A stretch of 64,000 nt of DNA from Escherichia coli (GTDB lineage: Bacteria; Pseudomonadota; Gammaproteobacteria; Enterobacterales; Enterobacteriaceae). The DNA is taken from the NCBI RefSeq assembly GCF_003334815.1, contig NZ_QOWO01000024.1; one strand, given 5' to 3'. Below, piece by piece: positions 10,244 through 64,000 of the stretch (its first letter is position 1; the number at the start of each line of letters is the position of its first letter). The notes under the pieces are model-generated. The model was not told where the DNA came from. It did not search any database and worked only from the letters and a program-made list of their open reading frames with translations. The position numbers were made by a program, and so were the translations under genes.

Positions 10244-11214
<971 letters not shown>

Positions 11215-12452: not shown

Positions 12453-12469
12453 ATTAACTTAACCTTAAG
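12453..12469 (-). promoter_or_regulatory. PmrA/BasR box in the arnB promoter
   Basis: Minus strand reads CTTAAG-gttaa-GTTAAT (YTTAAK-N5-YTTAAK direct repeat), about 100 bp upstream of the arnB start, in the arnB/ais divergent intergenic region. Confidence 0.7.
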
Positions 12470-12661
12470 AAACTAATATTAGACGTAAATATTGAAATTT
12501 TTATATTTTTTCTTATTTAGGCTTTGCATTTGGCAAAATTTTGAGGCATTTTGCCGACATCGTAGGATTTTTAATATTACACCAACTGCGAATTATCGCC
12601 AGAAATGTAGCTCAATTTCACGGTAATTGTCTGGTTGCGCTTGTCTATAGGTGGAGTTTAC

Positions 12662-13264: not shown

Positions 13265-13302
13265 ATTTTCAATCTGACAGCCAGTAATGGCTGTCATCAT
13301 TG

Positions 13303-13728: not shown

Positions 13729-14006
13729 AGGGATATTCCTTATAAATAAAAAGAAACCATGAGAATACGGTAACTCACAAATATGTGAAAGTGACAGTAA
13801 TCTCTTTTGCGATGATAACTGTACTTATTATTATTTTTGTGTGTATCGATAAAGTGTGTTTATTTTTTCGGCATTTAATTATTTAAGAAGTATTTAGTTA
13901 CAATAAGTGACTAGATCCTTTTTTTCGCTCATTGAATCCTCTGTGCCAGGCAGTACAATCCCGCAGCTTTGGGAATTTTGATTAATTGCTTGTGGGAAAG
14001 GGGATA

Positions 14007-14549: not shown

Positions 14550-14648
14550 TCCCTTCCGGCGCGGCATTCTGTCGCGCCATTCAGTTTCTTACTACGCCTT
14601 ATCTCCCTTTGCGTTATAGTGATTCGATAACAAAAGCAGGAGATAACC

Positions 14649-15851
14649 ATGTTAAAAGTGGAAATGTTATCCACCGGGGATGAAGTGTTACACGGGCAAA
14701 TCGTTGACACTAACGCTGCCTGGCTGGCCGATTTTTTCTTTCATCAGGGGTTGCCATTATCTCGCCGCAATACGGTGGGGGATAACCTTGATGACTTAGT
14801 CACCATTCTTCGCGAACGTAGTCAGCACGCCGATGTGCTGATCGTTAACGGCGGGCTGGGACCGACCAGCGATGATTTAAGCGCACTCGCCGCTGCGACA
14901 GCAAAAGGTGAAGGCCTGGTGCTGCATGAAGCCTGGCTCAAAGAGATGGAACGCTATTTCCACGAACGTGGACGAGTAATGGCACCGAGCAACCGTAAAC
15001 AAGCGGAGCTGCCTGCCAGTGCTGAATTTATCAATAACCCGGTAGGCACCGCCTGTGGTTTTGCCGTGCAGCTTAATCGTTGCCTGATGTTCTTTACTCC
15101 CGGCGTACCGTCAGAATTTAAGGTGATGGTCGAGCACGAAATCCTGCCGCGCCTGCGCGAGCGTTTTTCTTTACCGCAGCCGCCGGTTTGTCTGCGTTTG
15201 ACTACTTTTGGTCGTTCGGAAAGCGATCTGGCACAAAGCCTGGACACTCTACAACTGCCGCCGGGCGTAACAATGGGCTATCGCTCCTCAATGCCTATCA
15301 TCGAACTGAAACTCACCGGACCGGCAAGCGAGCAACAGGCGATGGAAAAACTGTGGCTGGATGTTAAACGTGTTGCCGGACAGAGCGTGATTTTCGAAGG
15401 CACTGAAGGACTGCCCGCGCAGATCAGTCGCGAATTGCAAAACCGCCAGTTCAGCCTGACGTTGAGCGAGCAATTCACCGGTGGTTTATTGGCTTTGCAA
15501 CTTTCTCGCGCAGGTGCTCCATTGCTGGCGTGTGAAGTGGTTCCTTCACAGGAGGAAACCCTGGCGCAAACTGCGCACTGGATTACAGAACGGCGGGCCA
15601 ACCATTTTGCCGGGCTGGCACTGGCTGTTTCGGGTTTCGAGAACGAGCATCTCAACTTTGCGCTAGCCACGCCAGACGGCACTTTCGCTCTGCGTGTGCG
15701 TTTCAGCACTACGCGCTACAGCCTGGCTATCCGTCAGGAAGTGTGCGCAATGATGGCACTGAATATGCTGCGCCGTTGGTTAAACGGCCAGGATATCGCC
15801 AGTGAGCATGGCTGGATTGAGGTTGTTGAGTCCATGACCTTATCTGTCTGA
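14649..15851 (+). CDS. yfaY: CinA-like (MoCF-binding domain) protein YfaY
   Basis: 400-aa ORF with CinA N-terminal domain features; position between yfaZ and rhmR. Confidence 0.85.
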   Translation: MLKVEMLSTGDEVLHGQIVDTNAAWLADFFFHQGLPLSRRNTVGDNLDDLVTILRERSQHADVLIVNGGLGPTSDDLSALAAATAKGEGLVLHEAWLKEMERYFHERGRVMAPSNRKQAELPASAEFINNPVGTACGFAVQLNRCLMFFTPGVPSEFKVMVEHEILPRLRERFSLPQPPVCLRLTTFGRSESDLAQSLDTLQLPPGVTMGYRSSMPIIELKLTGPASEQQAMEKLWLDVKRVAGQSVIFEGTEGLPAQISRELQNRQFSLTLSEQFTGGLLALQLSRAGAPLLACEVVPSQEETLAQTAHWITERRANHFAGLALAVSGFENEHLNFALATPDGTFALRVRFSTTRYSLAIRQEVCAMMALNMLRRWLNGQDIASEHGWIEVVESMTLSV

Positions 15852-20280: not shown

Positions 20281-20466
20281 TTAGTGGTTATTCGCTGCCA
20301 GATCGGCTTCGCTTAGCTGGGTGGCCGCGAGCACCTGGTCACGATCAAAGCCCTGTTCCAGCATGCGCAAAGCAATTTTAATGGCTTGTTCATGCAAACC
20401 TTCTAATTTACCTTCCTGCCAGCCAATTTGATGTCCTTCCTGCCGCAGCCGTTCAGCAATAGTCAT
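20281..20466 (-). CDS. ypaA: YpaA, 61-aa paralog of the RpnE C-terminal domain
   Basis: 61-aa ORF ([19 protein letters not shown]...) nearly identical to the last ~60 residues of the adjacent rpnE; product of a local tandem duplication. Confidence 0.75.
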   Translation of the reverse strand: MTIAERLRQEGHQIGWQEGKLEGLHEQAIKIALRMLEQGFDRDQVLAATQLSEADLAANNH

Positions 20467-20665
20467 TAATCTCTCCTTTTAATGACAGTTCGGAATATCA
20501 GCATCAGTGAGTTGGGTTGTCGCCAGCACAATCTCACGTTCAAAGCCCTGCTCCAGCATGCGCAAAGCAATTTTAATGGCTTGTTCATGCATACCTTCCT
20601 GCCAGCCAATTTGATGCCCTTCCTGCCGTAGCCGTTCAGCAATAGTCATTAATCTCTCCTTTTGT
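20400..20665. repeat. Tandem direct duplication (~190-bp unit) covering the rpnE 3' end and ypaA
   Basis: CATGCGCAAAGCAATTTTAATGGCTTGTTCATGCA and CCGTTCAGCAATAGTCATTAATCTCTCCTTTT each occur twice about 190 bp apart. Confidence 0.8.
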
Positions 20666-30919: not shown

Positions 30920-31128
<209 letters not shown>

Positions 31129-37879: not shown

Positions 37880-37980
<101 letters not shown>

Positions 37981-41637: not shown

Positions 41638-48484
<6,847 letters not shown>

Positions 48485-50134
48485 GTGAACTGGCGCAGAA
48501 TCGTCTGGCTATTGGCGTTGGTTACTCTGCCAACACTTGCGGAGGAGACGCCGTTACAACTGGTGCTGCGCGGTGCGCAGCACGATCAACTGTATCAGCT
48601 GTCGTCATCAGGCGTGACCAAAGTCTCAGCATTACCTGACTCGCTCACCACGCCGTTAGGGAGTTTGTGGAAACTGTATGTTTACGCCTGGCTGGAGGAT
48701 ACCCATCAACCGGAGCAGCCCTACCAGTGTCGCGGAAACTCCCCGGAAGAGGTTTATTGTTGTCAGGCTGGGGAGAGCATAACGCGCGATACCGCGCTGG
48801 TACGTTCCTGTGGGCTCTATTTTGCGCCGCAGCGGTTGCATATTGGCGCAGATGTGTGGGGGCAATACTGGCAACAGCGTCAGGCACCTGCGTGGTTAGC
48901 GTCTCTGACTACGCTGAAGCCAGAAACCTCGGTAACGGTTAAATCGCTGCTTGATTCATTAGCGACGTTACCCGCGCAAAACAAAGCTCAGGAAGTCTTA
49001 CTGGATGTGGTGCTGGACGAGGCGAAAATCGGTGTCGCATCCATGCTCGGTAGTCGGGTACGGGTGAAAACCTGGAGCTGGTTTGCCGATGATAAACAGG
49101 AAATCCGTCAGGGTGGTTTTGCTGGCTGGTTAACCGATGGTACACCGCTGTGGGTTACTGGCAGTGGCACCAGCAAAACGGTACTAACCCGTTATGCGAC
49201 GGTGCTTAATCGGGTTTTGCCAGTGCCGACGCAGGTTGCCAGTGGGCAATGTGTAGAGGTGGAGCTGTTTGCCCGCTATCCGCTGAAGAAAATCACAGCG
49301 GAAAAGAGTACGACGGCAGTAAATCCCGGCGTACTTAATGGGCGCTATCGTGTGACGTTTACTAATGGTAACCACATTACGTTTGTCAGCCACGGTGAGA
49401 CGACCTTACTGAGCGAAAAGGGCAAACTGAAATTGCAGTCGCATCTCGATCGTGAAGAGTACGTTGCCAGAGTTCTGGATCGCGAGGCGAAAAGTACGCC
49501 CCCTGAGGCAGCGAAAGCCATGACCGTGGCGATTCGCACTTTTTTACAGCAAAACGCCAATCGGGAAGGCGATTGCCTGACCATCCCCGACAGCAGCGCC
49601 ACGCAGCGTGTTTCTGCTTCGCCAGCGACCACGGGGGCGCGAACGATGACCGCCTGGACGCAGGATCTCATCTATGCAGGCGATCCGGTTCATTATCATG
49701 GCAGTCGCGCTACCGAAGGGACACTTTTCTGGCGGCAAGCCACGGCCCAGGCGGGGCAGGGAGAGCGTTACGATCAGATACTCGCGTTTGCTTATCCCGA
49801 CAACAGTCTTAGCCGCTGGGGAGCGCCACGCTCAACCTGCCAGTTATTACCCAAAGCGAAAGCCTGGCTGGCGAAAAAAATGCCGCAGTGGCGGCGTATA
49901 TTACAAGCTGAGACGGGGTACAACGAACCAGACGTGTTTGCGGTTTGCCGTTTAGTCTCAGGTTTCCCCTATACCGATCGGCAGCAGAAACGGCTGTTTA
50001 TTCGTAACTTCTTTACGCTTCAGGATCGGCTGGATTTAACCCATGAGTATCTGCACCTGGCCTTTGATGGTTATCCCACCGGGCTTGATGAGAACTATAT
50101 CGAAACGCTGACCCGACAATTATTAATGGACTAA
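48485..50134 (+). CDS. yfaQ: Uncharacterized secreted protein YfaQ (DUF2300-like)
   Basis: 549 aa; GTG start directly after the yfaS stop codon; signal peptide MNWRRIVWLLALVTLPTLA. Confidence 0.82.
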   Translation: MNWRRIVWLLALVTLPTLAEETPLQLVLRGAQHDQLYQLSSSGVTKVSALPDSLTTPLGSLWKLYVYAWLEDTHQPEQPYQCRGNSPEEVYCCQAGESITRDTALVRSCGLYFAPQRLHIGADVWGQYWQQRQAPAWLASLTTLKPETSVTVKSLLDSLATLPAQNKAQEVLLDVVLDEAKIGVASMLGSRVRVKTWSWFADDKQEIRQGGFAGWLTDGTPLWVTGSGTSKTVLTRYATVLNRVLPVPTQVASGQCVEVELFARYPLKKITAEKSTTAVNPGVLNGRYRVTFTNGNHITFVSHGETTLLSEKGKLKLQSHLDREEYVARVLDREAKSTPPEAAKAMTVAIRTFLQQNANREGDCLTIPDSSATQRVSASPATTGARTMTAWTQDLIYAGDPVHYHGSRATEGTLFWRQATAQAGQGERYDQILAFAYPDNSLSRWGAPRSTCQLLPKAKAWLAKKMPQWRRILQAETGYNEPDVFAVCRLVSGFPYTDRQQKRLFIRNFFTLQDRLDLTHEYLHLAFDGYPTGLDENYIETLTRQLLMD

Positions 50135-50138
50135 TGCT

Positions 50139-50915
50139 ATGCGAAAGATTTTTCTTCCGTTGTTACTGGTGGCGCTTTCGCCTGTCGCTCACAGTGAAGG
50201 TGTGCAGGAAGTCGAGATTGATGCACCGCTCTCAGGCTGGCATCCGGCAGAGGGCGAAGATGCCAGTTTTTCACAATCGATCAATTACCCGGCGTCGTCC
50301 GTCAACATGGCAGATGATCAAAATATCTCAGCGCAGATCCGCGGCAAAATAAAGAATTATGCTGCGGCGGGTAAAGTTCAGCAGGGCCGGCTGGTGGTCA
50401 ACGGTGCCAGTATGCCGCAGAGAATTGAATCCGATGGTTCATTTGCACGCCCTTATATTTTCACTGAAGGCAGCAACAGCGTGCAGGTCATCAGCCCGGA
50501 TGGGCAAAGCCGACAAAAAATGCAGTTTTACTCAACGCCGGGTACAGGAACGATTCGTGCACGTTTACGGCTGGTTCTCTCGTGGGATACGGACAATACC
50601 GACCTCGACCTTCACGTTGTTACGCCCGATGGCGAACACGCCTGGTACGGTAACACCGTGCTGAAAAACAGTGGTGCACTGGATATGGATGTCACGACGG
50701 GGTACGGACCCGAGATTTTCGCCATGCCCGCGCCAATTCACGGGCGCTATCAGGTGTATATCAACTACTATGGTGGGCGCAGCGAAACGGAATTAACCAC
50801 CGCCCAACTGACGCTGATCACCGATGAAGGATCGGTCAATGAGAAACAGGAAACATTTATTGTACCGATGCGTAATGCTGGCGAGCTGACGCTGGTGAAA
50901 AGTTTTGACTGGTGA
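50139..50915 (+). CDS. yfaP: Uncharacterized secreted protein YfaP (DUF2135-like)
   Basis: 258 aa with signal peptide MRKIFLPLLLVALSPVAHS; 4 bp downstream of yfaQ. Confidence 0.82.
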   Translation: MRKIFLPLLLVALSPVAHSEGVQEVEIDAPLSGWHPAEGEDASFSQSINYPASSVNMADDQNISAQIRGKIKNYAAAGKVQQGRLVVNGASMPQRIESDGSFARPYIFTEGSNSVQVISPDGQSRQKMQFYSTPGTGTIRARLRLVLSWDTDNTDLDLHVVTPDGEHAWYGNTVLKNSGALDMDVTTGYGPEIFAMPAPIHGRYQVYINYYGGRSETELTTAQLTLITDEGSVNEKQETFIVPMRNAGELTLVKSFDW

Positions 50916-50988
50916 TTAATGGGGTTACCTTCGCCGTCGATGTTCAAGAAAACACCCGATAACTTTCGCTATCGGGTGTTTTTATTGA

Positions 50989-52173
50989 TTAATTCAACCG
51001 TTCAATCACCATCGCAATTCCCTGACCGCCGCCAATGCACAGTGTTGCCAGCCCCAGCGTTTTATCGCGTGCCTGCATGGCATGTAATAGTGTGACCAGA
51101 ATACGAGCACCACTGGCACCGATAGGATGCCCGAGCGCGATGGCCCCGCCGTTGACATTCACTTTCTCAGAATCAAAGCCCAGGTTTTTCCCAACGGCAA
51201 GGAACTGTGCAGCAAATGCTTCATTAGCCTCAATGAGATCAATATCCGCCAGTTGCAGCCCCGCCAGTTGTAACGCTTTTTGCGTGGCAGGTACTGGCCC
51301 CATACCCATCAATGCGGGGGGCACGCCACCGCTGGCATAACTTTTAATGCGAGCCAGGGGGGTAAGGCCTGCTGCCAGCGCCGCAGATTCTTCCATAATC
51401 ACCAGAGCGGCAGCACCGTCGTTAATACCAGACGCGTTCCCAGCGGTGACTGTTCCTGCTTTATCGAAGGCCGGGCGCAATGCACCTAACGCTTCAGCCG
51501 TTGAATTCGCTTTCGGGAATTCGTCTTGACTGAAGACGAAGGTTTTCTTTCGAGTGACAACATTTACCGGGACGATTTCGGCTGTAAAAGCACCGGACTC
51601 AATTGCGGCTGCCGCTTTACGCTGTGAATGTAGCGCCAGTTCATCCTGCATTTCACGGGTAATTCCGTACTCTTTAGCCACGTTTTCGGCGGTAATCCCC
51701 ATATGATAACCATGGGTGGCGCACATCAGGCCATCGCGCAGGATTACGTCATAAACCTGTCCGTCTCCAAGACGATAACCAGAGCGTGCTTTTGCATCGA
51801 GTAAGTAGGGGGCTAAACTCATATTTTCCATACCCCCCGCCACAATGCTCTGCGCCTGACCTGCCTGAATGGCCTGGGCGGCAAGCGCCACACTTTTAAG
51901 ACCCGAACCACATACTTTATTGACCGTGAATCCGCACACCGTTTCTGCCAGCCCGCTTTTTAACAGTGCCTGACGCGCCGGATTTTGCCCCAGCCCGGCT
52001 TGTAACACGTTACCCATAATCACTTCATCAACGTGTTGTGAATCGATTTTTGCACGTTCAATGGCGGCTTTAATTACTGTCGCCCCCAGGTCGATGGCGC
52101 TGGTGGAAGCGAGTGAACCGTTAAAACTACCGATAGCAGTACGTACCGCACTGACGATGACACAATTTTTCAT
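50989..52173 (-). CDS. atoB: Acetyl-CoA acetyltransferase (thiolase II)
   Basis: 394-aa thiolase with active-site Cys region [11 protein letters not shown] and C-terminal GGGQG. Confidence 0.95.
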
Positions 52174-52203
52174 TTTATATTCCTTCTGTTTGTAGGGGTG
52201 CCG

Positions 52204-53526
52204 TCAGAACAGCGTTAAACCAATGACGAAAATGACACCGGAGAAGAGCAGGGCAGTGATGCAGTAGCCCATGATGTCGCGGACACCGAGTCCGGCGATT
52301 GCCAGTGCTGGCAGCGCCCAGAATGGTTGTGCCATGTTCATCCATTGCTCGCCGTAGGCGATCGCCATTACCGATTTACCGAGATCAGCGCCCAGCGCCT
52401 GGGCTGCGGGTATCACGAAAGGTCCCTGAATAACCCAGTGACCGCCGCCAGACGGAACGGCGAAGTTAATCAGTGCAGAACTAAAAAAGGTCATTACCGG
52501 GAAGGTGTCTTTGTTCGCAACATTGATGAAGAATTCGGTAATGAGTCCGCCCAGACCGGAATGCTCCATCATCAGTTGGATCCCAGCGTAGAAGGGGAAT
52601 TGCACCAGAATACCGGCAGTACTGCGTGCTGCCGCGCTGATAGCACGCATATAAGCCATTGGCGTTTTATGTAGCAGCAGACCCGCAATCATAAACATCA
52701 GGTTGACGGTATTGATGGTGATGTTGAAGCCATGTTCGCTGAAGTACATCGCAAGGTAAGCGATACCGAGTGCGCCGATGATCAACGTCAGAATGCGGCT
52801 TTCTTCCAGTCGCTCGGATGGTGGGGCATCTTTCGGTAGCTGCTTTTGAAAATCAGCCTCTTCCATGAGTAGTTTTGGATCGATACTCACCACGTCAGAC
52901 GGTTTTGGCATCATCATGCGGGTGATAAATGGCATCACCACAATCAACGCCACAGTGATGAAAATGTTAAAACCACTGAACAGAGTATCGCCCACCGGGA
53001 TCAGCCCGGCGATATGCTCAACCGGGTTGCCCGGTGTTGCAGCCAACAGAGGCATTGATCCAGAGAAGCCGCCACCCCAGGTGAGAAAACCAATGTAGGC
53101 GCAGGCAATGAGCAACGGATAATCAGAACCGGGGACTCGCCGGGCGACTTCACGGGCAAACATTGCGCCGACAACCAAACCAAATCCCCAGTTGATGACA
53201 CAAGCGACTGAACCGAAGAAAGTGACCAGCATGACGCCCTGTACGGGCGTCTTTGCGGCGGAGGCGGCAGTACGCAGCAAACTTTTCACCGGAGCAGAGC
53301 TGGCAAGGGCATGACCGGTAACGATGATAAGCGCCATCTGCATACCAAACGCCAGCAAGTTCCAGAAACCGTCACCCCACATTTTCACCATGCTGATCGG
53401 CGTTTGTGGTGTTAACCAAAGCGCGATCACGAATGTTAGCAATGTCAGCAACATGGCAAAGATCAGTGGATCGGGAAGCCACCGGCTGACAAAACGCGTC
53501 ATAAAACGCGATATGCGACCAATCAT
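52204..53526 (-). CDS. atoE: Short-chain fatty acid transporter
   Basis: 440-aa polytopic membrane protein in ato operon position. Confidence 0.92.
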   Translation of the reverse strand: MIGRISRFMTRFVSRWLPDPLIFAMLLTLLTFVIALWLTPQTPISMVKMWGDGFWNLLAFGMQMALIIVTGHALASSAPVKSLLRTAASAAKTPVQGVMLVTFFGSVACVINWGFGLVVGAMFAREVARRVPGSDYPLLIACAYIGFLTWGGGFSGSMPLLAATPGNPVEHIAGLIPVGDTLFSGFNIFITVALIVVMPFITRMMMPKPSDVVSIDPKLLMEEADFQKQLPKDAPPSERLEESRILTLIIGALGIAYLAMYFSEHGFNITINTVNLMFMIAGLLLHKTPMAYMRAISAAARSTAGILVQFPFYAGIQLMMEHSGLGGLITEFFINVANKDTFPVMTFFSSALINFAVPSGGGHWVIQGPFVIPAAQALGADLGKSVMAIAYGEQWMNMAQPFWALPALAIAGLGVRDIMGYCITALLFSGVIFVIGLTLF

Positions 53527-54173
53527 AAATCACCCCGTTGCGTATTCAGATCGGCGGCGACTTCAAACCGAGCTTCTGTTTTGGCACGCACGGTGGCTAA
53601 ATCACACCCGTCGGCAATTTCGGTGAGCCACATTTTGCCGTCAATAAAACGAAAGACAGCCAGTTCAGTAACCAGCATATGCACCGCATGTTGCGCAGTG
53701 AGTGGCATGGTGCAGCGGCGCAAAATTTTTGCTGAACCATCTTTGGCGCAATGTTCCATGGCGATGATCACTTTGCGCGACCCGGTCACCAGATCCATCG
53801 CGCCACCCATACCGGGCACCATTTTCCCAGGCACTACCCAGTTCGCGAGGTTTGCTTCTTCGTCTACTTGCAAACCGCCGAGCACGCAGGCATCAATATG
53901 ACCGCCACGGATTAGCGCAAATGACATGGCGCTATCAAACATGGCTGCACCGGGTAAAACACCGCACGGTTGCCCGCCAGCGTTCACCAGATCTGGATGC
54001 GCTGTCGTGACCGGGCCTAAACCGAGGAAGCCGTTTTCCGATTGCAGAGTGATATGAATACCCTCCGGTAAATAATTGGCGACCATTGTGGGTAAACCGA
54101 TCCCTAAGTTAACGATGTCACCATCACGAAGCTCTTGCGCCACACGGCGCGCAATACGTTGTTTCGCATCCAT
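53523..54173 (-). CDS. atoA: Acetate CoA-transferase beta subunit
   Basis: 216 aa, 3-oxoacid CoA-transferase B subunit family; ATGA overlap with atoE. Confidence 0.93.
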   Translation of the reverse strand: MDAKQRIARRVAQELRDGDIVNLGIGLPTMVANYLPEGIHITLQSENGFLGLGPVTTAHPDLVNAGGQPCGVLPGAAMFDSAMSFALIRGGHIDACVLGGLQVDEEANLANWVVPGKMVPGMGGAMDLVTGSRKVIIAMEHCAKDGSAKILRRCTMPLTAQHAVHMLVTELAVFRFIDGKMWLTEIADGCDLATVRAKTEARFEVAADLNTQRGDL

Positions 54174-54835
54174 TATTTGCTCTCCTGTGAAACGATGATG
54201 TGGTCGATAACGGCACCAGGGGTGACAATATGGTCAGGTTGCAGCTCGCCGGTTTCGACCAGTTCATCTGGCTCTACCAGCGTGATATCAGCCGCAAGGG
54301 CTATCAGGGGGTTAAAGTTGCGGGCGCTAAGTTGATAGGTCAGGTTGCCAAGTGTGTCGCAACGATGAGCGCGAATTAGCGCCAGGTCGGCGCGCAGTGG
54401 GCGTTCGAGCAGCCAGGTTTTACCGTCGAGTGTCAGTGTCTGTTTGCCTTCCTCTACGACGGTGCCGACACCCGTTGGGGTGAGAAAACCACCAAGTCCA
54501 GCTCCACCACAGCGAATTTGCTCGATTAGCGTACCTTGCGGCACCAGAACGACGTCCATCTCACCAGATATCATGCGCCGACCTGTTTCCGGGTTGGTGC
54601 CGATATGTGAAGCAATCACTTTGCGGACTCGACCATTGACGATGAGCGGACCGATGCCGGTATCAACAAACGCGGTATCATTGGCTATCAATGTCAGGTC
54701 GCGAACACCAGATTCCAGTAATGCTTCAACCAGGCGGGATGGAGTGCCAATCCCCATAAATCCGCCCACCATGATGGTCATGCCGTCACGAAAGAAGCCG
54801 GTGGCGTCTTGTAATGTCATCAATTTTGTTTTCAT
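54173..54835 (-). CDS. atoD: Acetate CoA-transferase alpha subunit
   Basis: 220 aa, CoA-transferase A subunit family; 1-nt overlap with atoA. Confidence 0.93.
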
Positions 54836-54880
54836 TTTTTATCCCTCTTGCATACACCGTTGTGGGTACAGTCAGGCAAT

Positions 54881-54896
54881 AGCAAGGGGAGTGCCA
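54881..54896 (-). promoter_or_regulatory. Sigma-54 (-24/-12) promoter of atoDAEB
   Basis: Minus strand reads TGGCAC-tcccc-TTGCT (GG and GC elements 5 nt apart), about 45 bp upstream of the atoD ATG; matches the AtoC sigma-54 activator encoded nearby. Confidence 0.8.
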
Positions 54897-54978
54897 GAAT
54901 GAGATTATTGGATTTAGTTATTTAACTAATTGAATATGAAGGGATAAATTGGATGGGGATTTATAAGGAGAATGAGCG

Positions 54979-55019
54979 GCTATGCAGAAAATTGCGCACT
55001 GTGCAAATTTCTGCATAGC
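54979..55019. promoter_or_regulatory. AtoC enhancer: 20-bp inverted repeat upstream of the ato sigma-54 promoter
   Basis: GCTATGCAGAAAATTGCGCA-c-TGTGCAAATTTCTGCATAGC, a near-perfect palindrome about 100 bp upstream of the -24/-12 element. Confidence 0.75.
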
Positions 55020-55030
55020 AAGTTTTGGTG

Positions 55031-56416
55031 TTATACATCCGCCGGATCGATACCGTATTCCTGGAGTTTATACATCAATGCACGGCGACTGATGCCCAGC
55101 ATTAAAGCAGTGCGGGTTCGGTTTCCTTCTTGTTGTTCCAGCACTTCCATAATGATGCGTTTTTCGACGCGTTTAATTTCCTCTTTTAAATTACGCTCAC
55201 CGACAGGGGCTGTTTTTACCTCGCCAGCATTACAGACTGGCTGACGAATCTGTGGCGGAAGATCCTCAGAAAAAATGATCGGGCCTGAATTCATCACGAC
55301 GGCGCGTTCAATAACGTTGGAAAGCTCTCGAATATTTCCCGGCCATGACCAGGCGGTAAGCAGTGACATTGCCATCGGATCGATGTCGATAATATCGCGC
55401 TGATTCTCACTACTGAATTTTTGCAAAAAGTGATTAGCTAACAGGGAAATATCTTCCCGGCGATCGCGCAGAGGCGGCAGTATTAAATGAATAACGTTAA
55501 GGCGATAAAAGAGATCTTCACGGAAGGTGCCTTCTTTTACCATTGCCTGCAAGTCGCGGTTGGTGGCAGCAATGATGCGGATATCAACTTTTATGGTCTG
55601 ATGGCCGCCAATCCGTTCAAATTCCCGTTCCTGTAGAATGCGTAGTAATTTGGCTTGTAGTACCAGCGGCATTTCGCCAATTTCGTCGAGGAGCAGAGTA
55701 CCTTCGTTGGCTCGTTCAAATAATCCCTGACGCAAGGTTTGTGCACCAGTAAATGCACCTTTTTCATGACCAAACAGTTCACTTTCGAGCAACGATTCCG
55801 GCAGCGCCGCGCAGTTGACTTTAATGAACGGCCCCTTTGCCCGCCGCGAATTGTAGTGAATCGCTCTGGCAATCAACTCTTTCCCGGTGCCGCTTTCACC
55901 GCTAATCAAGACGCTGGCCTGAGAAAGGGCAATTTTGGCGGTGTCTTTGCAGATGTCCATCATCGCCGGGCTGTTGGTGAGAATGTGCCCCCATTGCCAG
56001 CTGGTGCTCAGTGCCTGGTGCAGATGACGGATCTCTTTTTTCATTGACTGGAGTTGTAAAGCGCGCTGAACGATTAAATTCAACTCATCGAGATCAAACG
56101 GTTTAATAACATAGTCGAAGGCTCCGCAGCGTAGCGCTTCGACGGCGGTTTCCACTTCCGCATAGGCCGTCATCAGAATAACGGGTGTCCGGGTCTCATG
56201 GCTGCGCATCTCCTTTAGTGCCTTGATGCCGTCCATCTCTGGCATGCGGATATCCATCAACACCACATCAGGGTGAATATCGGCAAACAGGTGTAATGCT
56301 GTGCGTCCGTTGTTCGCACAATGTGTTTCGAATCCTTGTAGTGCAAAAGCGGTGCTCAGCATACGGCGAACATTATCTTCATCATCCACAATAAGGATGC
56401 GATTAATAGCAGTCAT
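55031..56416 (-). CDS. atoC: Sigma-54-dependent response regulator AtoC
   Basis: 461 aa: receiver domain, AAA+ domain with GAFTGA motif (ESELFGHEKGAFTGA), C-terminal HTH. Confidence 0.95.
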   Translation of the reverse strand: MTAINRILIVDDEDNVRRMLSTAFALQGFETHCANNGRTALHLFADIHPDVVLMDIRMPEMDGIKALKEMRSHETRTPVILMTAYAEVETAVEALRCGAFDYVIKPFDLDELNLIVQRALQLQSMKKEIRHLHQALSTSWQWGHILTNSPAMMDICKDTAKIALSQASVLISGESGTGKELIARAIHYNSRRAKGPFIKVNCAALPESLLESELFGHEKGAFTGAQTLRQGLFERANEGTLLLDEIGEMPLVLQAKLLRILQEREFERIGGHQTIKVDIRIIAATNRDLQAMVKEGTFREDLFYRLNVIHLILPPLRDRREDISLLANHFLQKFSSENQRDIIDIDPMAMSLLTAWSWPGNIRELSNVIERAVVMNSGPIIFSEDLPPQIRQPVCNAGEVKTAPVGERNLKEEIKRVEKRIIMEVLEQQEGNRTRTALMLGISRRALMYKLQEYGIDPADV

Positions 56417-58239
56417 ACAGTCTGATTTCCCTGCGGGTTGATCGGTAAAATAAGCGTGAAGGTTGCGCCGTAGCCCGGCAAACTGGCGACGCGAATATCA
56501 CCCTGATGGGCATTAATGATGCGTTGACTTAACGCCAGACCAAGCCCGGTTCCTGAGGCTTTGGTGGTGAAAAAGGGATCGAAGATCTTTTTTTGCAGCG
56601 AGAGATCAATGCCACAGCCGTTGTCCTCTATCGAAATGGCCTGTTGTGAGTCGCTGTATTGCCAGGTTTGAATGCGAATTTTCCCTCGTGCGCTGATAGC
56701 CTGGACGGCATTGATCAGGATATTCAGTAGTACCTGTTTGAGCAGTTCACGATCGGCGTTAATCGGGCTTAATTCATTATCCAGTTCGCTTATGAAGTCG
56801 ACCCGCGCTTGTACGCCGGCGGTTTGTACCAGTACCAGAGTTTCTTCAACCAATGCATTGAGGCTGACTTGTTGCCATTGACTGTGGCGTGGACGTGAAA
56901 ATTCGAGCAATTGCTGAATAACTTTGTTAATTGAATCGATTTCTTTGAGTACTACGGACAGATATTCCTGATGTATTGGGTCACTGGTTTGTTGGCGCAA
57001 GATCTGTACATAACCACGAATAGCCGTTAACGGATTACGTACTTCATGCGCGACGCCAGCCATCAGCTCACCCAGTGTGGCGAGGCGTTCTGCTTGCGCC
57101 ATGCGGCGCTGGGTTTCTTTGCGGGCAGTTAAATCAGAGAAAATCACCAAAGCACCTATCATTTCACCGTGCGTGTTATGAATACGACTGGTAGTGACAC
57201 TGAGTTCAATGGTGCGGTCACGACCTGGAAAACTGATCTCCAGCGCCACATGTTCGGTGCCATGTTCCAGCGTATCCAGTACTGGACTGTAGAACTGAGT
57301 ATTGTCGAACAACATGGAGTAAGGCTGCCCTACCAGTTCATGGCGTTGATAGCCAGTGATAACTTCTGCTGCTGGGTTCATGGTGGTTACATCACCCTGG
57401 CGGTCAATGGCAATGACGCCATCGGCAGCGTTTTCAATAATCAGATCGTTAAGTGTCCGCGTTTCACGCAGTGCCTGGGCGAGGTTATTAACACTCTGAC
57501 TGATTTGCCCCATTTCACCGGGCAATTGTGGTAATCGAGTGGGAATATTTTGTGCCAGAGTCGAGAGGCCATCGGTGATGATATCAATATTGGCGCTCAG
57601 GCGACGGGAGAAAAGGACAATCAACAGCAGGCTTATCAGCAAACCAGCGGTGAGCACAATGATAATCCTCACATCCATTTTCCAGGCCTGGCGGCGAATA
57701 TCTTCGGTTAATTCATTGGCCCAGATATAGCCGAGGATTTCACCATTACGCTCAATGGGGAGCATTGAATTCAAAATATCGCCGCGCACCTGCCTGCCTG
57801 AATAAACTAAAGGGGTATTTGTACGCATCACTTCGCGACCAGGGTGATCTGCGGCAATGGTAACGCCGACATTATTCTGATATAGCGCTGAAGGCGCGTA
57901 GGTGATTATCGCATCCAGCATTTTGTTGTAATAACCAGCACCGATGCCAGGGAAGGCGTGAGTGATATTTTCGGTAATGGGGGCAAGTTCTGCATTTAAT
58001 GCGCGGATACGCTCCTCACGTGGTAAGTCGATGTAGAGATCATAGCGATCGCCTAGTGCCTGATTAAGCAGGTTGACCACGGCAGAAAGTTTTTTCTCTT
58101 TTTCAGATAAGACTGCTGAACGTCCTTCCGTTTCTACGATATAACCAATAGTAAGCGTTGGGACAATGACCATCAGGATTGCCATCAGGATCATTTGATT
58201 GCGTAAGCGGCGTGGATAAATCCACTTCATATAATGCAT
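56413..58239 (-). CDS. atoS: Sensor histidine kinase AtoS
   Basis: Start set at MHYMKWIYPRRL (608 aa); TM, PAS and HisKA (H-box AHEVRNPL) plus HATPase domains; ATGA overlap with atoC. Confidence 0.93.
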   Translation of the reverse strand: MHYMKWIYPRRLRNQMILMAILMVIVPTLTIGYIVETEGRSAVLSEKEKKLSAVVNLLNQALGDRYDLYIDLPREERIRALNAELAPITENITHAFPGIGAGYYNKMLDAIITYAPSALYQNNVGVTIAADHPGREVMRTNTPLVYSGRQVRGDILNSMLPIERNGEILGYIWANELTEDIRRQAWKMDVRIIIVLTAGLLISLLLIVLFSRRLSANIDIITDGLSTLAQNIPTRLPQLPGEMGQISQSVNNLAQALRETRTLNDLIIENAADGVIAIDRQGDVTTMNPAAEVITGYQRHELVGQPYSMLFDNTQFYSPVLDTLEHGTEHVALEISFPGRDRTIELSVTTSRIHNTHGEMIGALVIFSDLTARKETQRRMAQAERLATLGELMAGVAHEVRNPLTAIRGYVQILRQQTSDPIHQEYLSVVLKEIDSINKVIQQLLEFSRPRHSQWQQVSLNALVEETLVLVQTAGVQARVDFISELDNELSPINADRELLKQVLLNILINAVQAISARGKIRIQTWQYSDSQQAISIEDNGCGIDLSLQKKIFDPFFTTKASGTGLGLALSQRIINAHQGDIRVASLPGYGATFTLILPINPQGNQTV

Positions 58240-58405
58240 GCTGAAATCCACTAGTCTTGTCCGGTATATGACGATTATCAGAGGTTAAGGTGATGATTTC
58301 TCGGCGGTGTATCATATTCCAGAGAAGAGAGAACATTGCGGTAACACGCTTTTACCGCTACCTTAACCACACTCCATCGGTCACCTGAGGCGGAGCTTCG
58401 CCCCT

Positions 58406-61255
58406 TTGAAATACCTTGCTTCTTTTCGTACAACCCTGAAAGCCTCGCGCTACATGTTCAGAGCATTGGCGTTAGTGCTCTGGCTGTTGATTGCTTTTTC
58501 ATCCGTTTTTTACATCGTTAATGCGTTACATCAGCGAGAATCGGAAATTCGTCAGGAATTTAATCTGAGTTCCGATCAGGCTCAGCGCTTTATTCAACGC
58601 ACCTCTGATGTGATGAAAGAGCTGAAGTACATCGCCGAAAATCGCTTATCGGCAGAAAACGGTGTGCTTTCCCCGCGTGGACGAGAAACGCAGGCGGATG
58701 TGCCTGCGTTTGAACCGCTGTTTGCCGACTCCGATTGTTCCGCAATGAGTAACACCTGGCGAGGTTCTCTGGAGTCATTGGCGTGGTTTATGCGCTACTG
58801 GCGCGATAATTTTTCTGCGGCTTACGATCTAAACCGGGTATTTTTAATCGGCAGCGATAACCTCTGCATGGCCAATTTCGGTCTGCGTGATATGCCAGTG
58901 GAACGCGATACCGCGTTGAAAGCTTTGCATGAACGCATCAATAAATATCGAAATGCACCACAAGATGATAGCGGCAGTAACCTCTACTGGATCAGCGAAG
59001 GTCCGCGCCCTGGCGTCGGGTATTTTTACGCGTTGACGCCAGTTTATCTGGCGAACCGGTTGCAGGCGCTTTTGGGTGTCGAGCAGACCATCCGGATGGA
59101 GAACTTTTTCTTACCGGGTACGTTGCCGATGGGGGTTACCATTCTTGATGAAAATGGTCATACCCTGATTTCGCTTACCGGACCAGAAAGTAAAATTAAG
59201 GGCGATCCTCGCTGGATGCAGGAACGCTCCTGGTTTGGCTATACGGAAGGGTTCCGGGAGCTGGTGCTGAAGAAAAATCTGCCACCCTCATCGCTAAGCA
59301 TCGTGTATTCGGTGCCGGTTGATAAGGTGCTGGAACTCATTCGCATGTTGATCCTTAACGCAATTTTGCTGAATGTGCTTGCCGGAGCTGCATTGTTTAC
59401 TCTCGCACGGATGTACGAGCGACGTATTTTCATTCCGGCGGAAAGCGACGCCCTGCGACTGGAAGAACATGAGCAGTTCAATCGCAAGATTGTCGCCTCC
59501 GCGCCAGTGGGTATCTGCATTTTGCGTACCGCTGATGGCGTCAATATTTTAAGTAACGAACTGGCGCATACCTATCTCAATATGCTTACGCATGAGGACC
59601 GCCAACGACTGACGCAAATTATCTGTGGGCAGCAGGTCAATTTTGTTGATGTCCTGACCAGCAACAATACCAATCTGCAAATCAGCTTCGTCCATTCGCG
59701 CTATCGTAATGAAAACGTGGCCATTTGTGTGCTGGTGGATGTTTCTTCGCGCGTGAAGGTGGAAGAGTCGTTGCAGGAGATGGCACAAGCAGCGGAACAG
59801 GCGAGCCAGTCAAAATCGATGTTCCTTGCCACCGTCAGTCATGAGCTGCGAACGCCGCTGTATGGCATTATCGGTAACCTGGATCTGTTGCAAACCAAAG
59901 AGTTACCGAAAGGCGTCGATCGGCTGGTGACGGCAATGAACAACTCTTCCAGCCTGTTGTTGAAAATTATCAGCGATATTCTCGATTTCTCGAAGATTGA
60001 ATCGGAACAGTTGAAGATCGAACCGCGTGAGTTTTCACCGCGTGAAGTGATGAACCACATCACCGCCAACTATTTACCGCTGGTGGTACGCAAGCAGTTA
60101 GGCTTGTACTGCTTTATTGAACCGGATGTGCCAGTGGCCTTAAATGGCGACCCGATGCGTTTACAGCAGGTCATCTCCAACCTGTTGAGTAACGCCATAA
60201 AATTCACCGATACCGGCTGTATAGTTTTGCATGTTCGCGCGGATGGCGATTATCTCTCTATCCGTGTTCGCGATACCGGCGTGGGGATACCGGCGAAAGA
60301 AGTGGTGCGCTTGTTTGATCCCTTCTTCCAGGTCGGAACGGGCGTACAGCGTAATTTCCAGGGGACCGGTCTGGGTCTGGCGATTTGTGAAAAACTGATC
60401 AGCATGATGGACGGCGATATCTCGGTAGATTCAGAACCGGGAATGGGCAGCCAGTTTACCGTGCGTATTCCGTTGTACGGCGCTCAGTACCCGCAGAAAA
60501 AAGGCGTGGAAGGGTTGAGTGGTAAACGCTGCTGGCTGGCGGTCCGCAATGCGTCGCTCTGTCAGTTCCTGGAAACCAGTTTGCAGCGCAGCGGCATCGT
60601 CGTTACAACATACGAAGGGCAGGAACCGACTCCCGAAGATGTGTTGATCACTGACGAGGTAGTGAGTAAAAAATGGCAGGGCAGAGCGGTAGTGACCTTC
60701 TGTCGTCGCCATATTGGTATTCCGCTGGAGAAAGCGCCAGGGGAGTGGGTACACAGTGTGGCTGCTCCGCATGAGCTACCGGCATTGTTGGCGCGTATTT
60801 ATTTGATCGAGATGGAGAGCGACGATCCTGCTAACGCTCTGCCGTCAACGGACAAAGCGGTCAGCGATAATGACGATATGATGATTCTGGTCGTGGATGA
60901 TCATCCGATTAACCGGCGTTTGCTGGCAGATCAGTTGGGATCGTTGGGCTATCAATGTAAAACCGCGAATGATGGCGTCGATGCGCTTAATGTACTTAGC
61001 AAGAATCATATTGATATCGTGCTTAGCGACGTCAACATGCCAAATATGGATGGTTACCGCTTGACGCAACGCATTCGTCAGTTGGGACTGACGTTGCCGG
61101 TAATCGGAGTAACTGCTAATGCGTTGGCTGAAGAGAAGCAGCGGTGTCTGGAGTCCGGTATGGACAGCTGCCTGTCGAAGCCGGTAACGCTGGATGTGAT
61201 AAAACAGACGCTGACGTTATATGCCGAGAGGGTCAGGAAATCGCGGGATTCGTAG
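58406..61255 (+). CDS. rcsC: Hybrid sensor histidine kinase RcsC
   Basis: 949 aa; H-box SHELRTPL, HATPase domain, C-terminal receiver (VVDDHPINRRLL ... DVNMPNMDG). Confidence 0.97.
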   Translation: MKYLASFRTTLKASRYMFRALALVLWLLIAFSSVFYIVNALHQRESEIRQEFNLSSDQAQRFIQRTSDVMKELKYIAENRLSAENGVLSPRGRETQADVPAFEPLFADSDCSAMSNTWRGSLESLAWFMRYWRDNFSAAYDLNRVFLIGSDNLCMANFGLRDMPVERDTALKALHERINKYRNAPQDDSGSNLYWISEGPRPGVGYFYALTPVYLANRLQALLGVEQTIRMENFFLPGTLPMGVTILDENGHTLISLTGPESKIKGDPRWMQERSWFGYTEGFRELVLKKNLPPSSLSIVYSVPVDKVLELIRMLILNAILLNVLAGAALFTLARMYERRIFIPAESDALRLEEHEQFNRKIVASAPVGICILRTADGVNILSNELAHTYLNMLTHEDRQRLTQIICGQQVNFVDVLTSNNTNLQISFVHSRYRNENVAICVLVDVSSRVKVEESLQEMAQAAEQASQSKSMFLATVSHELRTPLYGIIGNLDLLQTKELPKGVDRLVTAMNNSSSLLLKIISDILDFSKIESEQLKIEPREFSPREVMNHITANYLPLVVRKQLGLYCFIEPDVPVALNGDPMRLQQVISNLLSNAIKFTDTGCIVLHVRADGDYLSIRVRDTGVGIPAKEVVRLFDPFFQVGTGVQRNFQGTGLGLAICEKLISMMDGDISVDSEPGMGSQFTVRIPLYGAQYPQKKGVEGLSGKRCWLAVRNASLCQFLETSLQRSGIVVTTYEGQEPTPEDVLITDEVVSKKWQGRAVVTFCRRHIGIPLEKAPGEWVHSVAAPHELPALLARIYLIEMESDDPANALPSTDKAVSDNDDMMILVVDDHPINRRLLADQLGSLGYQCKTANDGVDALNVLSKNHIDIVLSDVNMPNMDGYRLTQRIRQLGLTLPVIGVTANALAEEKQRCLESGMDSCLSKPVTLDVIKQTLTLYAERVRKSRDS

Positions 61256-61452
<197 letters not shown>

Positions 61453-61454
61453 GA

Positions 61455-62105
61455 TTAGTCTTTATCTGCCGGACTTAAGGTCACTGAAGAGAGATAATTC
61501 AGCAGGGCGATATCGTTCTCGACACCCAGCTTCATCATCGCAGATTTCTTCTGGCTACTGATGGTTTTAATACTGCGGTTCAGCTTTTTAGCGATCTCGG
61601 TCACCAGGAAGCCTTCCGCAAACAGGCGCAGAACTTCACTCTCTTTTGGCGAGAGACGCTTGTCACCGTAACCACCAGCACTGATTTTTTCCAACAGGCG
61701 AGAAACGCTTTCCGGGGTAAATTTCTTCCCTTTCTGCAGCGCGGCGAGAGCTTTCGGCAGATCGGTCGGTGCACCTTGTTTCAGCACGATCCCTTCGATA
61801 TCCAGATCCAATACCGCACTAAGAATCGCCGGGTTGTTGTTCATAGTCAGAACAATGATCGACAGGCTTGGGAAATGGCGCTTGATGTACTTGATTAAGG
61901 TAATGCCATCGCCGTACTTATCGCCAGGCATGGAGAGATCGGTAATCAACACATGCGCATCCAGTTTCGGCAGGTTGTTGATCAGTGCTGTAGAGTCTTC
62001 AAATTCGCCGACAACATTCACCCACTCAATTTGCTCAAGTGATTTGCGAATACCGAACAAGACTATCGGATGGTCATCGGCAATAATTACGTTCATATTG
62101 TTCAT
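61455..62105 (-). CDS. rcsB: Response regulator RcsB (LuxR/FixJ family)
   Basis: Start set at MNNMNVIIADDHPIV (216 aa); C-terminal LuxR-type HTH. Confidence 0.95.
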   Translation of the reverse strand: MNNMNVIIADDHPIVLFGIRKSLEQIEWVNVVGEFEDSTALINNLPKLDAHVLITDLSMPGDKYGDGITLIKYIKRHFPSLSIIVLTMNNNPAILSAVLDLDIEGIVLKQGAPTDLPKALAALQKGKKFTPESVSRLLEKISAGGYGDKRLSPKESEVLRLFAEGFLVTEIAKKLNRSIKTISSQKKSAMMKLGVENDIALLNYLSSVTLSPADKD

Positions 62106-62121
62106 GTAATAGGCTACCTTG

Positions 62122-63924
62122 CTACAGCAAGCTCTTGACATAACTGTCAATGTCGCTGATGTATTTTTCTATTCCTGGAACATCCTTCTCACGAATCAGA
62201 TGTTCCAGCGTTTCACATAACTGCTTGCCGGGTACCAGATTTAGCATGGCAAATACGCCTTTAAGACGATGAGCCGTTTGGGCTAACGCAGCAAAGTCAC
62301 TGGTTGCTGCTTCAGTATACAGCCTCTTAACATCATCCGGTACTGTGTCTACAAAGAGCGCATAATAGCCGCTGGCATGGAGTTGCGCATTTTCATCTCC
62401 GCCCAGAGGCGATTCTGTCACCTCTTCCTGCGCCAGTTGCACTTCAATTAATTGTAAGACCGCTTCCTGCATAGCGTTGCTCATATTGAAGTTGACGCAC
62501 AATTGACCAGGCCCAATTTCCCGTACGCCAGACTCATCATCGCTTAAAAGCAAGCCAGAGGCAGTAAGATTAGACGGATTATCCGTTAAAAAGATATCAT
62601 AATCTTGACTAATTAATCTTTCATCGGGTGTGATACAGGTTGCACCCCAATTTTCTAACTGGCGAGTGACAATATTCCGAATTTCTGCCGAAGTAACATC
62701 CACCATTACGCAGACATCATCCAGTAAACGCTCTTCTTCCTCTTCAACTTCCGGGTCAGCTGCGAGCATTTTGATATGCACAGAGTAGCGTGTACCAAGC
62801 CCATCCCGCGTTTTGATGTTTAAATGACCGCCCAGTTTACGTGCCAGTTGATCGCTCAGCCAGAATGCCAGCGGGTCCGCCTTGCCATAGCGATCGTTTT
62901 GGGTCTGGTTGATAAACGGGAAGTGCAAATTATCCATTTCATGAATACTTACGCCTTCTCCCGTGTCCAGAATGCGGAACGTCAGGCGGTCTTCGGAGGA
63001 CTCATCCTGATCAACCTCAAGGGTGATTTTTCCCAATTGCGTTGAGGTCACGGCATATTGCATCAGTAGCAGCAAAATACGTCGTAAGGCATCGCGATCG
63101 CCGCGGCGCATATCGTGTGCTTTCAGATGATTGTTAATCAGCAGTTGCAGACCTTTACGCTTGATGGCAGGCAACACTGAAGGCACAACTTCATCAATTA
63201 AATCCTGCACGGAGAACAGCACCGTCTCACTTTTCCAGCTATCATCCGCAAGCATGTTCGCTAACTGTATTTCATCAACCAGCCGCACCAGCACATCTGC
63301 CTGATTCGCCAGTTGTTTGCTTTCCGGGGCGTTGAGTTTAGCCGCGCTCTCCGCCAGGGACTGTGCGGGTTCTTTCAGCGCATCGCCAATGTTTTTCATA
63401 AAGATCATCCGCCCCTGCTGGTTTTTCTCATACAGACGCTGCGCCTGCTTGAGTTTCTTGTTTACCAGCACTTCGCGATCCTGATCGCGAATAATGAAAA
63501 TTTGTGTGCGCGGCGCGACCTGGCTGCGGAACATGCGGATCTCATACAGCTCGTTATTGATCGTCGCCTGAATAATCCCCTGATGCTGTTCCGCCATGGT
63601 GGTGATGTTTTGCAGATTCAAATGCGGCAGCAAATGATCGGCAATTTTGTTACTTATGACAGTGCGGTTCGATTCCTGATCGTGAACCAGCAGGCCGAGC
63701 GGCAGCAGTGAGACTATCTCTTCATTGATTGCCCGTAAAATGCGCAATTCGTTATTGACCGCCGTGCTGGGGACGTTTTCTGTACTGCGGCTGGAGAAAT
63801 GGCGGAATGTGGTATAGCCAAATAACGCCAGCGCCAGCAAACCGATGTTCAGCAGCAGTGGCAGCAGAATGTTTTGCAACGTATCCAGCAATAAGGTGCC
63901 ATAAGGAACCTGCCAGACCAGGCG
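62122..63924 (-). CDS. rcsD: Phosphotransfer intermediate RcsD, 3' ~600 codons only; upstream part separated by an IS10 insertion at 63924/63925
   Basis: Frame is continuous from the rcsB-proximal stop up to the IS10 junction, then terminates at a stop inside the IS sequence (63937-63939); the retained part holds a TM helix (ILLPLLLNIGLLALALFGY), a kinase-like domain and the C-terminal HPt domain. Confidence 0.85.
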   Translation of the reverse strand, partial: RLVWQVPYGTLLLDTLQNILLPLLLNIGLLALALFGYTTFRHFSSRSTENVPSTAVNNELRILRAINEEIVSLLPLGLLVHDQESNRTVISNKIADHLLPHLNLQNITTMAEQHQGIIQATINNELYEIRMFRSQVAPRTQIFIIRDQDREVLVNKKLKQAQRLYEKNQQGRMIFMKNIGDALKEPAQSLAESAAKLNAPESKQLANQADVLVRLVDEIQLANMLADDSWKSETVLFSVQDLIDEVVPSVLPAIKRKGLQLLINNHLKAHDMRRGDRDALRRILLLLMQYAVTSTQLGKITLEVDQDESSEDRLTFRILDTGEGVSIHEMDNLHFPFINQTQNDRYGKADPLAFWLSDQLARKLGGHLNIKTRDGLGTRYSVHIKMLAADPEVEEEEERLLDDVCVMVDVTSAEIRNIVTRQLENWGATCITPDERLISQDYDIFLTDNPSNLTASGLLLSDDESGVREIGPGQLCVNFNMSNAMQEAVLQLIEVQLAQEEVTESPLGGDENAQLHASGYYALFVDTVPDDVKRLYTEAATSDFAALAQTAHRLKGVFAMLNLVPGKQLCETLEHLIREKDVPGIEKYISDIDSYVKSLL

Positions 63925-64000
63925 CTGATGAATCCCCTAATGATTTTGGTAAAAATCATTAAGTTAAGGTGGATACACATCTTGTCATATGATCAAATGG
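63925..64000. mobile_element. IS10 (Tn10) outside terminal sequence, first 76 bp; rest of element beyond the window edge
   Basis: 63925-64000 reads CTGATGAATCCCCTAATGATTTTGGTAAAAATCATTAAGTTAAGGTGGATACACATCTTGTCATATGATCAAATGG, which I recognise from memory as the IS10 outside end, including the palindromic AATGATTTTGGTAAAAATCATT segment. Confidence 0.85.

Follow-up and report, generated by a model that had tools for sequence, protein, structure and literature searches.

An IS10-Right insertion, most likely a single element accompanied by a 9-bp target duplication, splits rcsD in the window (the whole stretch of 64,000 nucleotides analysed here), in a wild phylogroup-A clone of Escherichia coli for which an rcsD-null-like state is the default expectation. 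We documented the identity, position and orientation of the element, its target duplication, the empty site and the recurrence of the insertion in independent data sets; the far side of the insertion was read in a sister assembly (GCA_965212685.1).

We compared the window base by base with MG1655 (NZ_CP032667.1). Positions 1 to 63924 were colinear with the reference from menD to rcsD, with 15 substitutions and no indels (99.98% identity), and homology ended at 63924/63925, base 63925 being a chance match. The MG1655 rcsD gene has 890 codons, and the break lies 870 nt past its start, after codon 290 (Met290); codons 291–890 (600 codons) are still contiguous with rcsB. The initial annotation had described an rcsD frame that runs uninterrupted to this junction and then meets a stop inside the element, leaving about 600 C-terminal codons with rcsB. 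Translation of the minus strand bore out both points: the frame was open from the stop codon at 62122–62124 up to the junction, and the TAG that follows it within IS10 means that no translational fusion from the element into RcsD is formed. We also found that an intact rcsD continues in frame over the junction site in a near-identical strain with an empty site.

The retained codons were 100% identical to K-12 RcsD. They encode the last 15 periplasmic residues, TM2, the PAS-like, HATPase-like and ABL domains, and the HPt domain with His842. Hydropathy plotting placed the two hydrophobic segments of RcsD at about residues 20–44 (TM1) and 306–330 (TM2), so the break falls in the periplasmic domain, 15 residues ahead of TM2. 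Precomputed Pfam matches on the retained 585-aa called product were HATPase_c, RcsD_ABL and Hpt. The full-length RcsD architecture (TM1, periplasmic domain, TM2, PAS-like, HATPase-like, ABL and HPt) is not encoded in one piece here, as the gene is split; rcsD is thus a disrupted member of the RcsD (YojN) phosphotransfer protein family. The coordinates of all features are given in Table 1.

Table 1. Position of the IS10 end, the rcsD fragment and the neighbouring rcs genes in the window.
Feature	Position	Strand	Basis or comment
rcsC, intact, with R311L (59337) and M452V (59759), both lineage-specific	58406..61255	+	Sequence comparison
rcsB, intact, 16 nt downstream of the rcsD stop	61455..62105	-	MG1655 annotation mapped; identical to MG1655, 0 SNPs
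rcsD 3' fragment, codons 291–890 and stop	62122..63924	-	Identical to MG1655, 0 SNPs
Candidate internal start GTG792 with AGGAAGAG upstream (AGGA motif)	62419..62431	-	Scan for starts and Shine-Dalgarno-like sequences
9-bp target GACCAGGCG, left copy of the target-site duplication	63916..63924	+	Repeated on CBDBYT010000019.1
IS10-Right outside end, nt 1–76	63925..64000	+	0 mismatches to R100/Tn10 IS10R
IS10 terminal inverted repeat, nt 1–23	63925..63947		Direct sequence reading and established IS10 knowledge
TAG stop in the rcsD frame, within IS10 (IS nt 13–15)	63937..63939	-	Minus-strand translation
RNA-OUT 3' half (model positions 40–70), clipped by the window end	63970..64000	-	Rfam RF00240
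Dam site GATC, IS nt 67–70	63991..63994		Direct sequence reading and established IS10 knowledge

IS10 is a common mobile element of about 1.3 kb that belongs to the IS4 family and encodes a DDE-type transposase of 402 codons. The last 76 nt of the window had been ascribed to its outside terminus, and alignment to the IS10-Right reference confirmed the assignment without a mismatch, whereas IS10-Left differed at four positions (IS nt 24, 25, 27 and 47). For this comparison Tn10 was extracted from R100, and its two IS10 copies were told apart by their position relative to tetD, tetC, tetA and tetR. The segment thus has the sequence of an IS10 outside end with its 23-bp inverted repeat. It matched 2715 plasmid records at ≥99% and was 100% identical to IS10 ends including that of R100. 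The IS10-end pattern matched none of 100 shuffled sequences, so that none is expected by chance. Neither a second IS10 end nor tet genes were found in the window, and the transposase gene presumably lies past the window end, on the plus strand. The RefSeq annotation assigns IS10-Right to the "ISVsa5 family".

To follow the lineage through public assemblies, the exact RcsC protein carrying both R311L and M452V was used as a barcode. This rare allele was present on 33 blocks, which fell into three neighbourhood types. The first, represented by GCA_018459725.1 (L008) and 12 similar places, keeps rcsD whole and matches window positions 48406–63925 at 100% identity; it is the empty site in the same lineage. 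The second, GCA_965212685.1 contig 26 with four similar places, agrees with the window at 100% identity over 15,595 nt and ends in the identical junction and 121 nt of IS10R. In the third (GCA_012531265.1 and five similar places) the contig stops 4 nt short of the junction. The identical junction, with about 27 nt of IS10R, was also recovered in Logan assemblies of at least two runs (SRR10357323 and ERR271227).

For the far side of the insertion we predicted the product that the rcsD 5' part would have if it ran into an IS10 inside end, namely RcsD residues 1–293 followed by LRDPLIISPKRNHV. An exact look-up found this sequence on contig 19 of the sister assembly GCA_965212685.1 (CBDBYT010000019.1). 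The end of that contig consists of 202 nt of the IS10R inside end, with no mismatches to IS10R and six to IS10L, followed in colinear order by GACCAGGCG, the rcsD 5' part, ompC, apbE, ada and alkB. The flanks of the sister assembly map to positions 1–15519 and 15511–22850 of L008 and overlap by exactly 9 bp. While the window itself contains one copy of GACCAGGCG, the sister assembly has it at both boundaries, and the plus-strand 9-bp duplication expected in the initial annotation was in this way recovered. The two outside ends around tetR and tetA(B) that define Tn10 were not seen: on its far side, the element in the sister terminates in an IS10R inside end, which settles the question of IS10 or whole Tn10 there in favour of a lone IS10. 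Together, the 9-bp flank overlap and the inside end indicate a simple IS10 transposition, at least in the sister assembly, whose contigs cover IS10 nt 1–121 and 1128–1329.

From these data, one IS10-Right of 1329 bp would have moved by cut-and-paste between rcsD codons 290 and 291, within the part encoding the periplasmic domain, and would have duplicated the 9-bp target GACCAGGCG. Since both junction contigs of GCA_965212685.1 end in the element, IS10 appears to be repeated in that genome, and the host clone would likewise carry more than one copy. A repeated IS10 makes short-read contigs end inside the element, which is most likely the reason that the window takes in no more than its first 76 nt.

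The junction was absent from 5426 complete RefSeq E. coli genomes, where the best coverage was bases 1–326 of the 401-base query. An apparent full-length match in ST18 was rejected: it joins, as a second piece, a separate IS10 L/R hybrid located in ompC. A degenerate pattern for either junction, which does match the window, had no matches in species-representative genomes or in JGI metagenomes.

The closest complete genome was that of 52F4, a calf isolate from Switzerland, with 7 differences in 64 kb. This strain has the same RcsC allele, gyrA V541L and an intact rcsD. At 5 of the 10 checkable SNP sites relative to MG1655, the window carried an allele common to the wild strains LR-29-1 and ML35. 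In yfaS, TGG is found where K-12 has TGA, and the open reading frame is uninterrupted while the K-12 frame is broken. A mutator or mutagenised K-12 as the origin of the 15 SNPs was ruled out, since wild strains have the same allele at half of the checkable sites. The laboratory K-12 lines of PMC4760081, which bear IS insertions in rcs genes and serve as a precedent, were also considered as the origin of the strain and set aside, as nothing connects them with the window. Based on these sequence comparisons, the host is a wild phylogroup-A lineage that is related to K-12 and not derived from it. The strain had earlier been labelled a Tn10/IS10 carrier rather than a plain K-12; the IS10 part of that label stands, but neither a whole Tn10 nor the K-12 framing does, as the host belongs to a wild lineage.

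We weighed three other accounts of the junction and its host against a single IS10-Right insertion in a wild clone. That the host is a laboratory K-12 derivative which once carried Tn10, and the insertion a laboratory IS10 hop, is suggested by the 99.98% identity of the region to MG1655 and by the frequency of such hops in Tn10-bearing laboratory strains (that of ST18 in ompC lies only 2.4 kb off). We give this almost no credence, in view of the 15 SNPs in 64 kb, the wild-strain alleles at 5 of 10 sites (one of them restoring the yfaS frame), a calf isolate as the nearest complete genome at 7 SNPs, the rare RcsC allele on 33 public-assembly blocks, and the absence of the junction from every complete K-12 genome. 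Equally hard to credit is a chimeric join of rcsD and IS10 fragments by the assembler. The element does sit at the extreme edge of the window, and assemblies tend to err near the ends of contigs; however, the junction recurs base for base in one NCBI assembly and in at least two from Logan, its right-hand counterpart exists together with the 9-bp duplication, and the break falls precisely at IS nt 1. IS10 and Tn10 are known to give rise to deletions and inversions next to them, and the window itself has only one junction, so that the end of a composite Tn10 or an IS10-promoted rearrangement, with the rcsD 5' part and ompC no longer adjoining, had to be considered as well. This is very improbable: GCA_965212685.1 shows the inside end, the same 9 bp and a colinear rcsD 5' part, ompC, apbE and ada, and with a composite Tn10 one would expect the outside end of IS10-Left there, whereas the 202 nt have no mismatch to IS10R and six to IS10L. 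For the sister assembly, a non-simple junction is largely refuted.

We then examined the regulatory sequences at the IS10 end. The Rfam model (RF00240) of RNA-OUT, the antisense RNA of IS10 that overlaps the start of the transposase gene, matched the window end with 33.5 bits (E = 6e-4), a 5'-truncated match that lies below the gathering score of 41. The complete 70-nt RNA-OUT matched with 98.8 bits at IS nt 46–115 in R100, on the outward-reading strand, and a full match with the same score was present in the sister contig L014, upstream of the rcsD 3' fragment and on the rcsD strand. RNA-OUT is therefore oriented toward the rcsD 3' fragment and rcsB. The outward promoter pOUT, which we take to lie at about IS nt 116–150, would be just past the window end. 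A simple promoter scan did not recover pIN or pOUT in the IS10 end at its thresholds, and the placement of pOUT here follows from the literature and from the Rfam position of RNA-OUT. The existence of pOUT is reported in Simons et al. 1983, as cited in PMC2744996, and IS10 pOUT has been shown to drive adjacent genes, e.g. in the activation of otsBA (PMC2744996). No terminator-like site was predicted on the minus strand from the junction to rcsB. The initial annotation had anticipated that pOUT, if present, would read into the rcsD fragment and rcsB, and the orientation of the Rfam match agrees with this.

Regarding function, TM1 and most of the periplasmic domain, the part on which IgaA repression is anchored, are cut off from TM2 and from all the cytoplasmic domains (PAS-like, HATPase-like, ABL and HPt). 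Residues 1–383 of RcsD and its periplasmic contact are required for IgaA repression (PMC7418988). Full-length RcsD can therefore not be made, and the RcsC-to-RcsB phosphorelay controlled by RcsF, IgaA and RcsD would be lost. The rcsD 5' part is predicted to yield a 307-residue product (RcsD 1–293 plus 14 residues encoded by the element), while the 3' part has no inherited start codon and the TAG in the element stops any translation reading in. From the missing start and this TAG, an rcsD-null-like state is the default expectation. In a start-codon scan, none of the in-frame ATG, GTG or TTG codons ahead of codon 442 had a Shine-Dalgarno-like sequence. Rcs would be non-inducible by envelope stress, with RcsB still made, and loss of the RcsD/RcsC phosphatase route would lead to a modest rise in basal RcsB activity. 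The 5' deletions rcsD541 and rcsD543 gave such a picture, with a moderate basal rise, abolished induction and RcsB not lowered (PMC7418988), and in experimental evolution, function has repeatedly been lost through IS insertions in rcsC, rcsD and rcsB (PMC4760081). Judging from the gene structure, IgaA-regulated signalling should be lost, and most likely regulated Rcs signalling is abolished and the allele behaves like an rcsD null.

Two points stand against a pure null. C-terminal RcsD fragments are active when expressed, and strong signals were obtained even from plasmid-borne rcsD carrying premature stops (PMC7418988); in addition, pOUT is directed into the fragment, with no predicted terminator-like site down to rcsB. 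The 3' fragment could accordingly be transcribed, from pOUT or from an internal promoter, and internal initiation could produce a truncated RcsD or an HPt-only protein that would still pass phosphate from RcsC to RcsB, leaving Rcs partly or fully constitutive, blind to IgaA and unresponsive to envelope signals. We regard this outcome as unlikely, although published work speaks for it. With the HPt domain retained, N-terminally truncated RcsD proteins are constitutive in their signalling and unresponsive to IgaA; RcsD326-C, 686-C, 792-C and delta45-304 signal in an RcsC-dependent manner and independently of polymyxin B nonapeptide, RcsD792-C being a functional HPt construct; chromosomal rcsD326-C is mucoid, and the strong signals of the plasmid premature-stop alleles fit the same outcome (PMC7418988). 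In Yersinia pestis, an rcsD frameshift led to a dominant RcsD-Hpt made from an internal start, and a short HPt protein at low level has been reported from E. coli rcsD (PMC10191623). Within the fragment itself, GTG792 is preceded by AGGAAGAG and could yield an HPt-only protein of residues 792–890, and TTG302 and TTG306 are other candidate starts that would retain TM2; the RNA-OUT/pOUT direction, the lack of a predicted terminator-like site there and the driving of adjacent genes by IS10 pOUT (PMC2744996) would provide for transcription.

On the other hand, TTG302 and TTG306 have no Shine-Dalgarno-like sequence, and RNA left untranslated for about 1.5 kb ahead of GTG792 would be prone to Rho-dependent termination. 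Under laboratory conditions, strong constitutive activity of Rcs carries a cost and is unstable (PMC4760081, PMC7418988). The presence of the allele in several assemblies and runs suggests that it is tolerated, which fits loss better than a costly constitutive state, and the basal rise of chromosomal rcsD541 and rcsD543 was only moderate. A more far-reaching form of the same idea, that rcsD::IS10 rewires the system in a circulating clone and uncouples RcsC-to-RcsB phosphotransfer from envelope sensing, as a counterpart of the Y. pestis RcsD-Hpt, is in our view quite unlikely; such a rewired allele might possibly have been selected on the RcsC R311L/M452V background. The proposal that RcsC-to-RcsB phosphotransfer is probably disabled, made when the junction was first noticed, is plausible, but it is only one of two live outcomes. 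The longest open reading frame, of 589 aa and starting at TTG302, was also submitted to an exact look-up; its sole match was a Logan contig that starts with a Nextera/Tn5 mosaic end, and it was discarded as an adapter/Tn5 artefact that has nothing to do with IS10.

Compared with known systems, the element has the same nt 1–76, the same place and orientation of RNA-OUT and the same 9-bp duplication as IS10-Right of Tn10, as well as its 202-nt inside end in the sister assembly, but it stands alone and does not belong to a composite Tn10. Of the 6 bases specified in the preferred core, GCTNAGC (consensus as quoted in PMC2744996), the target GACCAGGCG has only 3, so that the insertion site is not a hot spot. 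The alleles rcsD541/543, delta45-304 and rcsD326-C, engineered in E. coli K-12 (Wall et al. 2020, PMC7418988), likewise remove TM1 and the periplasmic domain or uncouple them from the cytoplasmic HPt part, with rcsB intact and expressed. Here, by contrast, an IS produced the allele in nature, no promoter or start was engineered ahead of the 3' part, and a 307-residue N-terminal fragment may form. The Y. pestis rcsD frameshift (Guo et al. 2023, PMC10191623) is, as in the present case, a disruption that arose naturally in a circulating lineage and lies upstream of the HPt-coding part, and the RcsD-Hpt allele indicates that such rcsD alleles need not be null. That allele, however, is a frameshift with internal AUU initiation shown experimentally, in another species and ecology, whereas ours is an IS insertion for which internal initiation is a prediction. 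The IS insertions in rcs genes that revert mucoidy (PMC4760081) belong to the same class of event, in which an IS interrupts an Rcs gene, and the activation of otsBA (PMC2744996) involves the same outward promoter of IS10 acting on a neighbouring gene; both were obtained in laboratory K-12 populations under defined selection, while the present case comes from a wild clone.

Our literature search found no published description of a natural rcsD::IS10 allele. A textbook IS10-Right has interrupted a well-studied gene in an ordinary way, nothing in the event departs from known biology, and the allele is already in public assemblies; its significance extends little past strain annotation. Rcs envelope-stress signalling controls the colanic-acid capsule, motility, biofilm formation, and beta-lactam and polymyxin responses, and in this clone its regulated form is almost certainly broken or uncoupled. 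IS10 is active in the clone. Finally, published truncations have raised the question whether 5' disruptions of rcsD are null or an IgaA-blind gain of function, and the near-isogenic relatives with an intact rcsD, 52F4 and GCA_018459725.1, form with this clone a natural pair for deciding it.

The two substitutions of RcsC in the window lie at distinct positions of the protein: R311L is found where the periplasmic domain meets TM2, and M452V immediately N-terminal to the kinase core. Among the 5422 complete E. coli genomes that gave a match, a single one, that of the calf isolate 52F4, combined the two. Since sister strains whose rcsD is intact carry both substitutions too, these are older than the insertion of IS10. 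R311L and M452V could possibly alter RcsC activity, in which case rcsD::IS10 might act as a suppressor.

The yfaS gene, encoding an alpha-2-macroglobulin, forms an unbroken open reading frame in the window with TGG at codon 1338, whereas in K-12 the same codon is TGA and the gene is a pseudogene; yfaS is one among several markers of the non-K-12 origin of the window. The window also shares gyrA V541L, which sits beyond the quinolone-resistance region, with 52F4, and this substitution was not found in MG1655, ST18, LR-29-1 or ML35.

Features of the window and of the ST18 ompC region
Feature	Coordinates	Strand	Remarks
Short inverted or dispersed repeats	20315-20663, 30946-31123, 37887-37969		secondary BLAST matches inside the region
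gyrA V541L	40482		codon 541
yfaS	43865-48484		SNP at 47983
rcsC	58406-61255	+	substitutions at 59337 and 59759
Two REP/BIME-type repeats	61255-61331, 61369-61445	+	Rfam naRNA4 (CssrE), 77.5 and 80.4 bits
Independent IS10 in ompC, ST18	33309-34637 of L001 (NZ_CP060709.1)		2.4 kb from the rcsD site of the window

A GenBank contig (L010, GCA_012531265.1) and 5 similar ones end 4 nt short of the IS10 junction, within the 9-bp target (window position 63920), which fits the same IS10 insertion with trimmed ends but is not proof of it. A short Logan contig (L017, SRR13207736; positions 1-60) showed a 1-nt deletion within this target (CGCCTGGTC to CGCCTGTC); if true, it would be an rcsD frameshift at the same spot as the IS10 insertion, though it could be an error of the read or of the assembly. 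Another Logan contig (L004, SRR20302337) opens with the Nextera/Tn5 mosaic end AGATGTGTATAAGAGACAG (positions 1-30) fused to rcsD at about codon 300. This start stems either from a leftover adapter or from a junction in a Tn5 library, and the identity of the resulting 589-aa open reading frame to that of the window is a coincidence.

The ompC element of the laboratory strain ST18 is a hybrid of IS10-Left and IS10-Right, with Left-type sequence over nt 24-903 and Right-type sequence over nt 1249-1300, and is flanked by a near-consensus duplication, TGCTCAGTA.

Both naRNA4 matches, which exceeded the Rfam gathering score, are located in the rcsC-rcsB interval, and K-12 has the same two repeats there. 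The inverted or dispersed repeats, which measure 83-166 nt and share 85-93% identity, presumably belong to REP or RIP-type elements found in K-12 as well.
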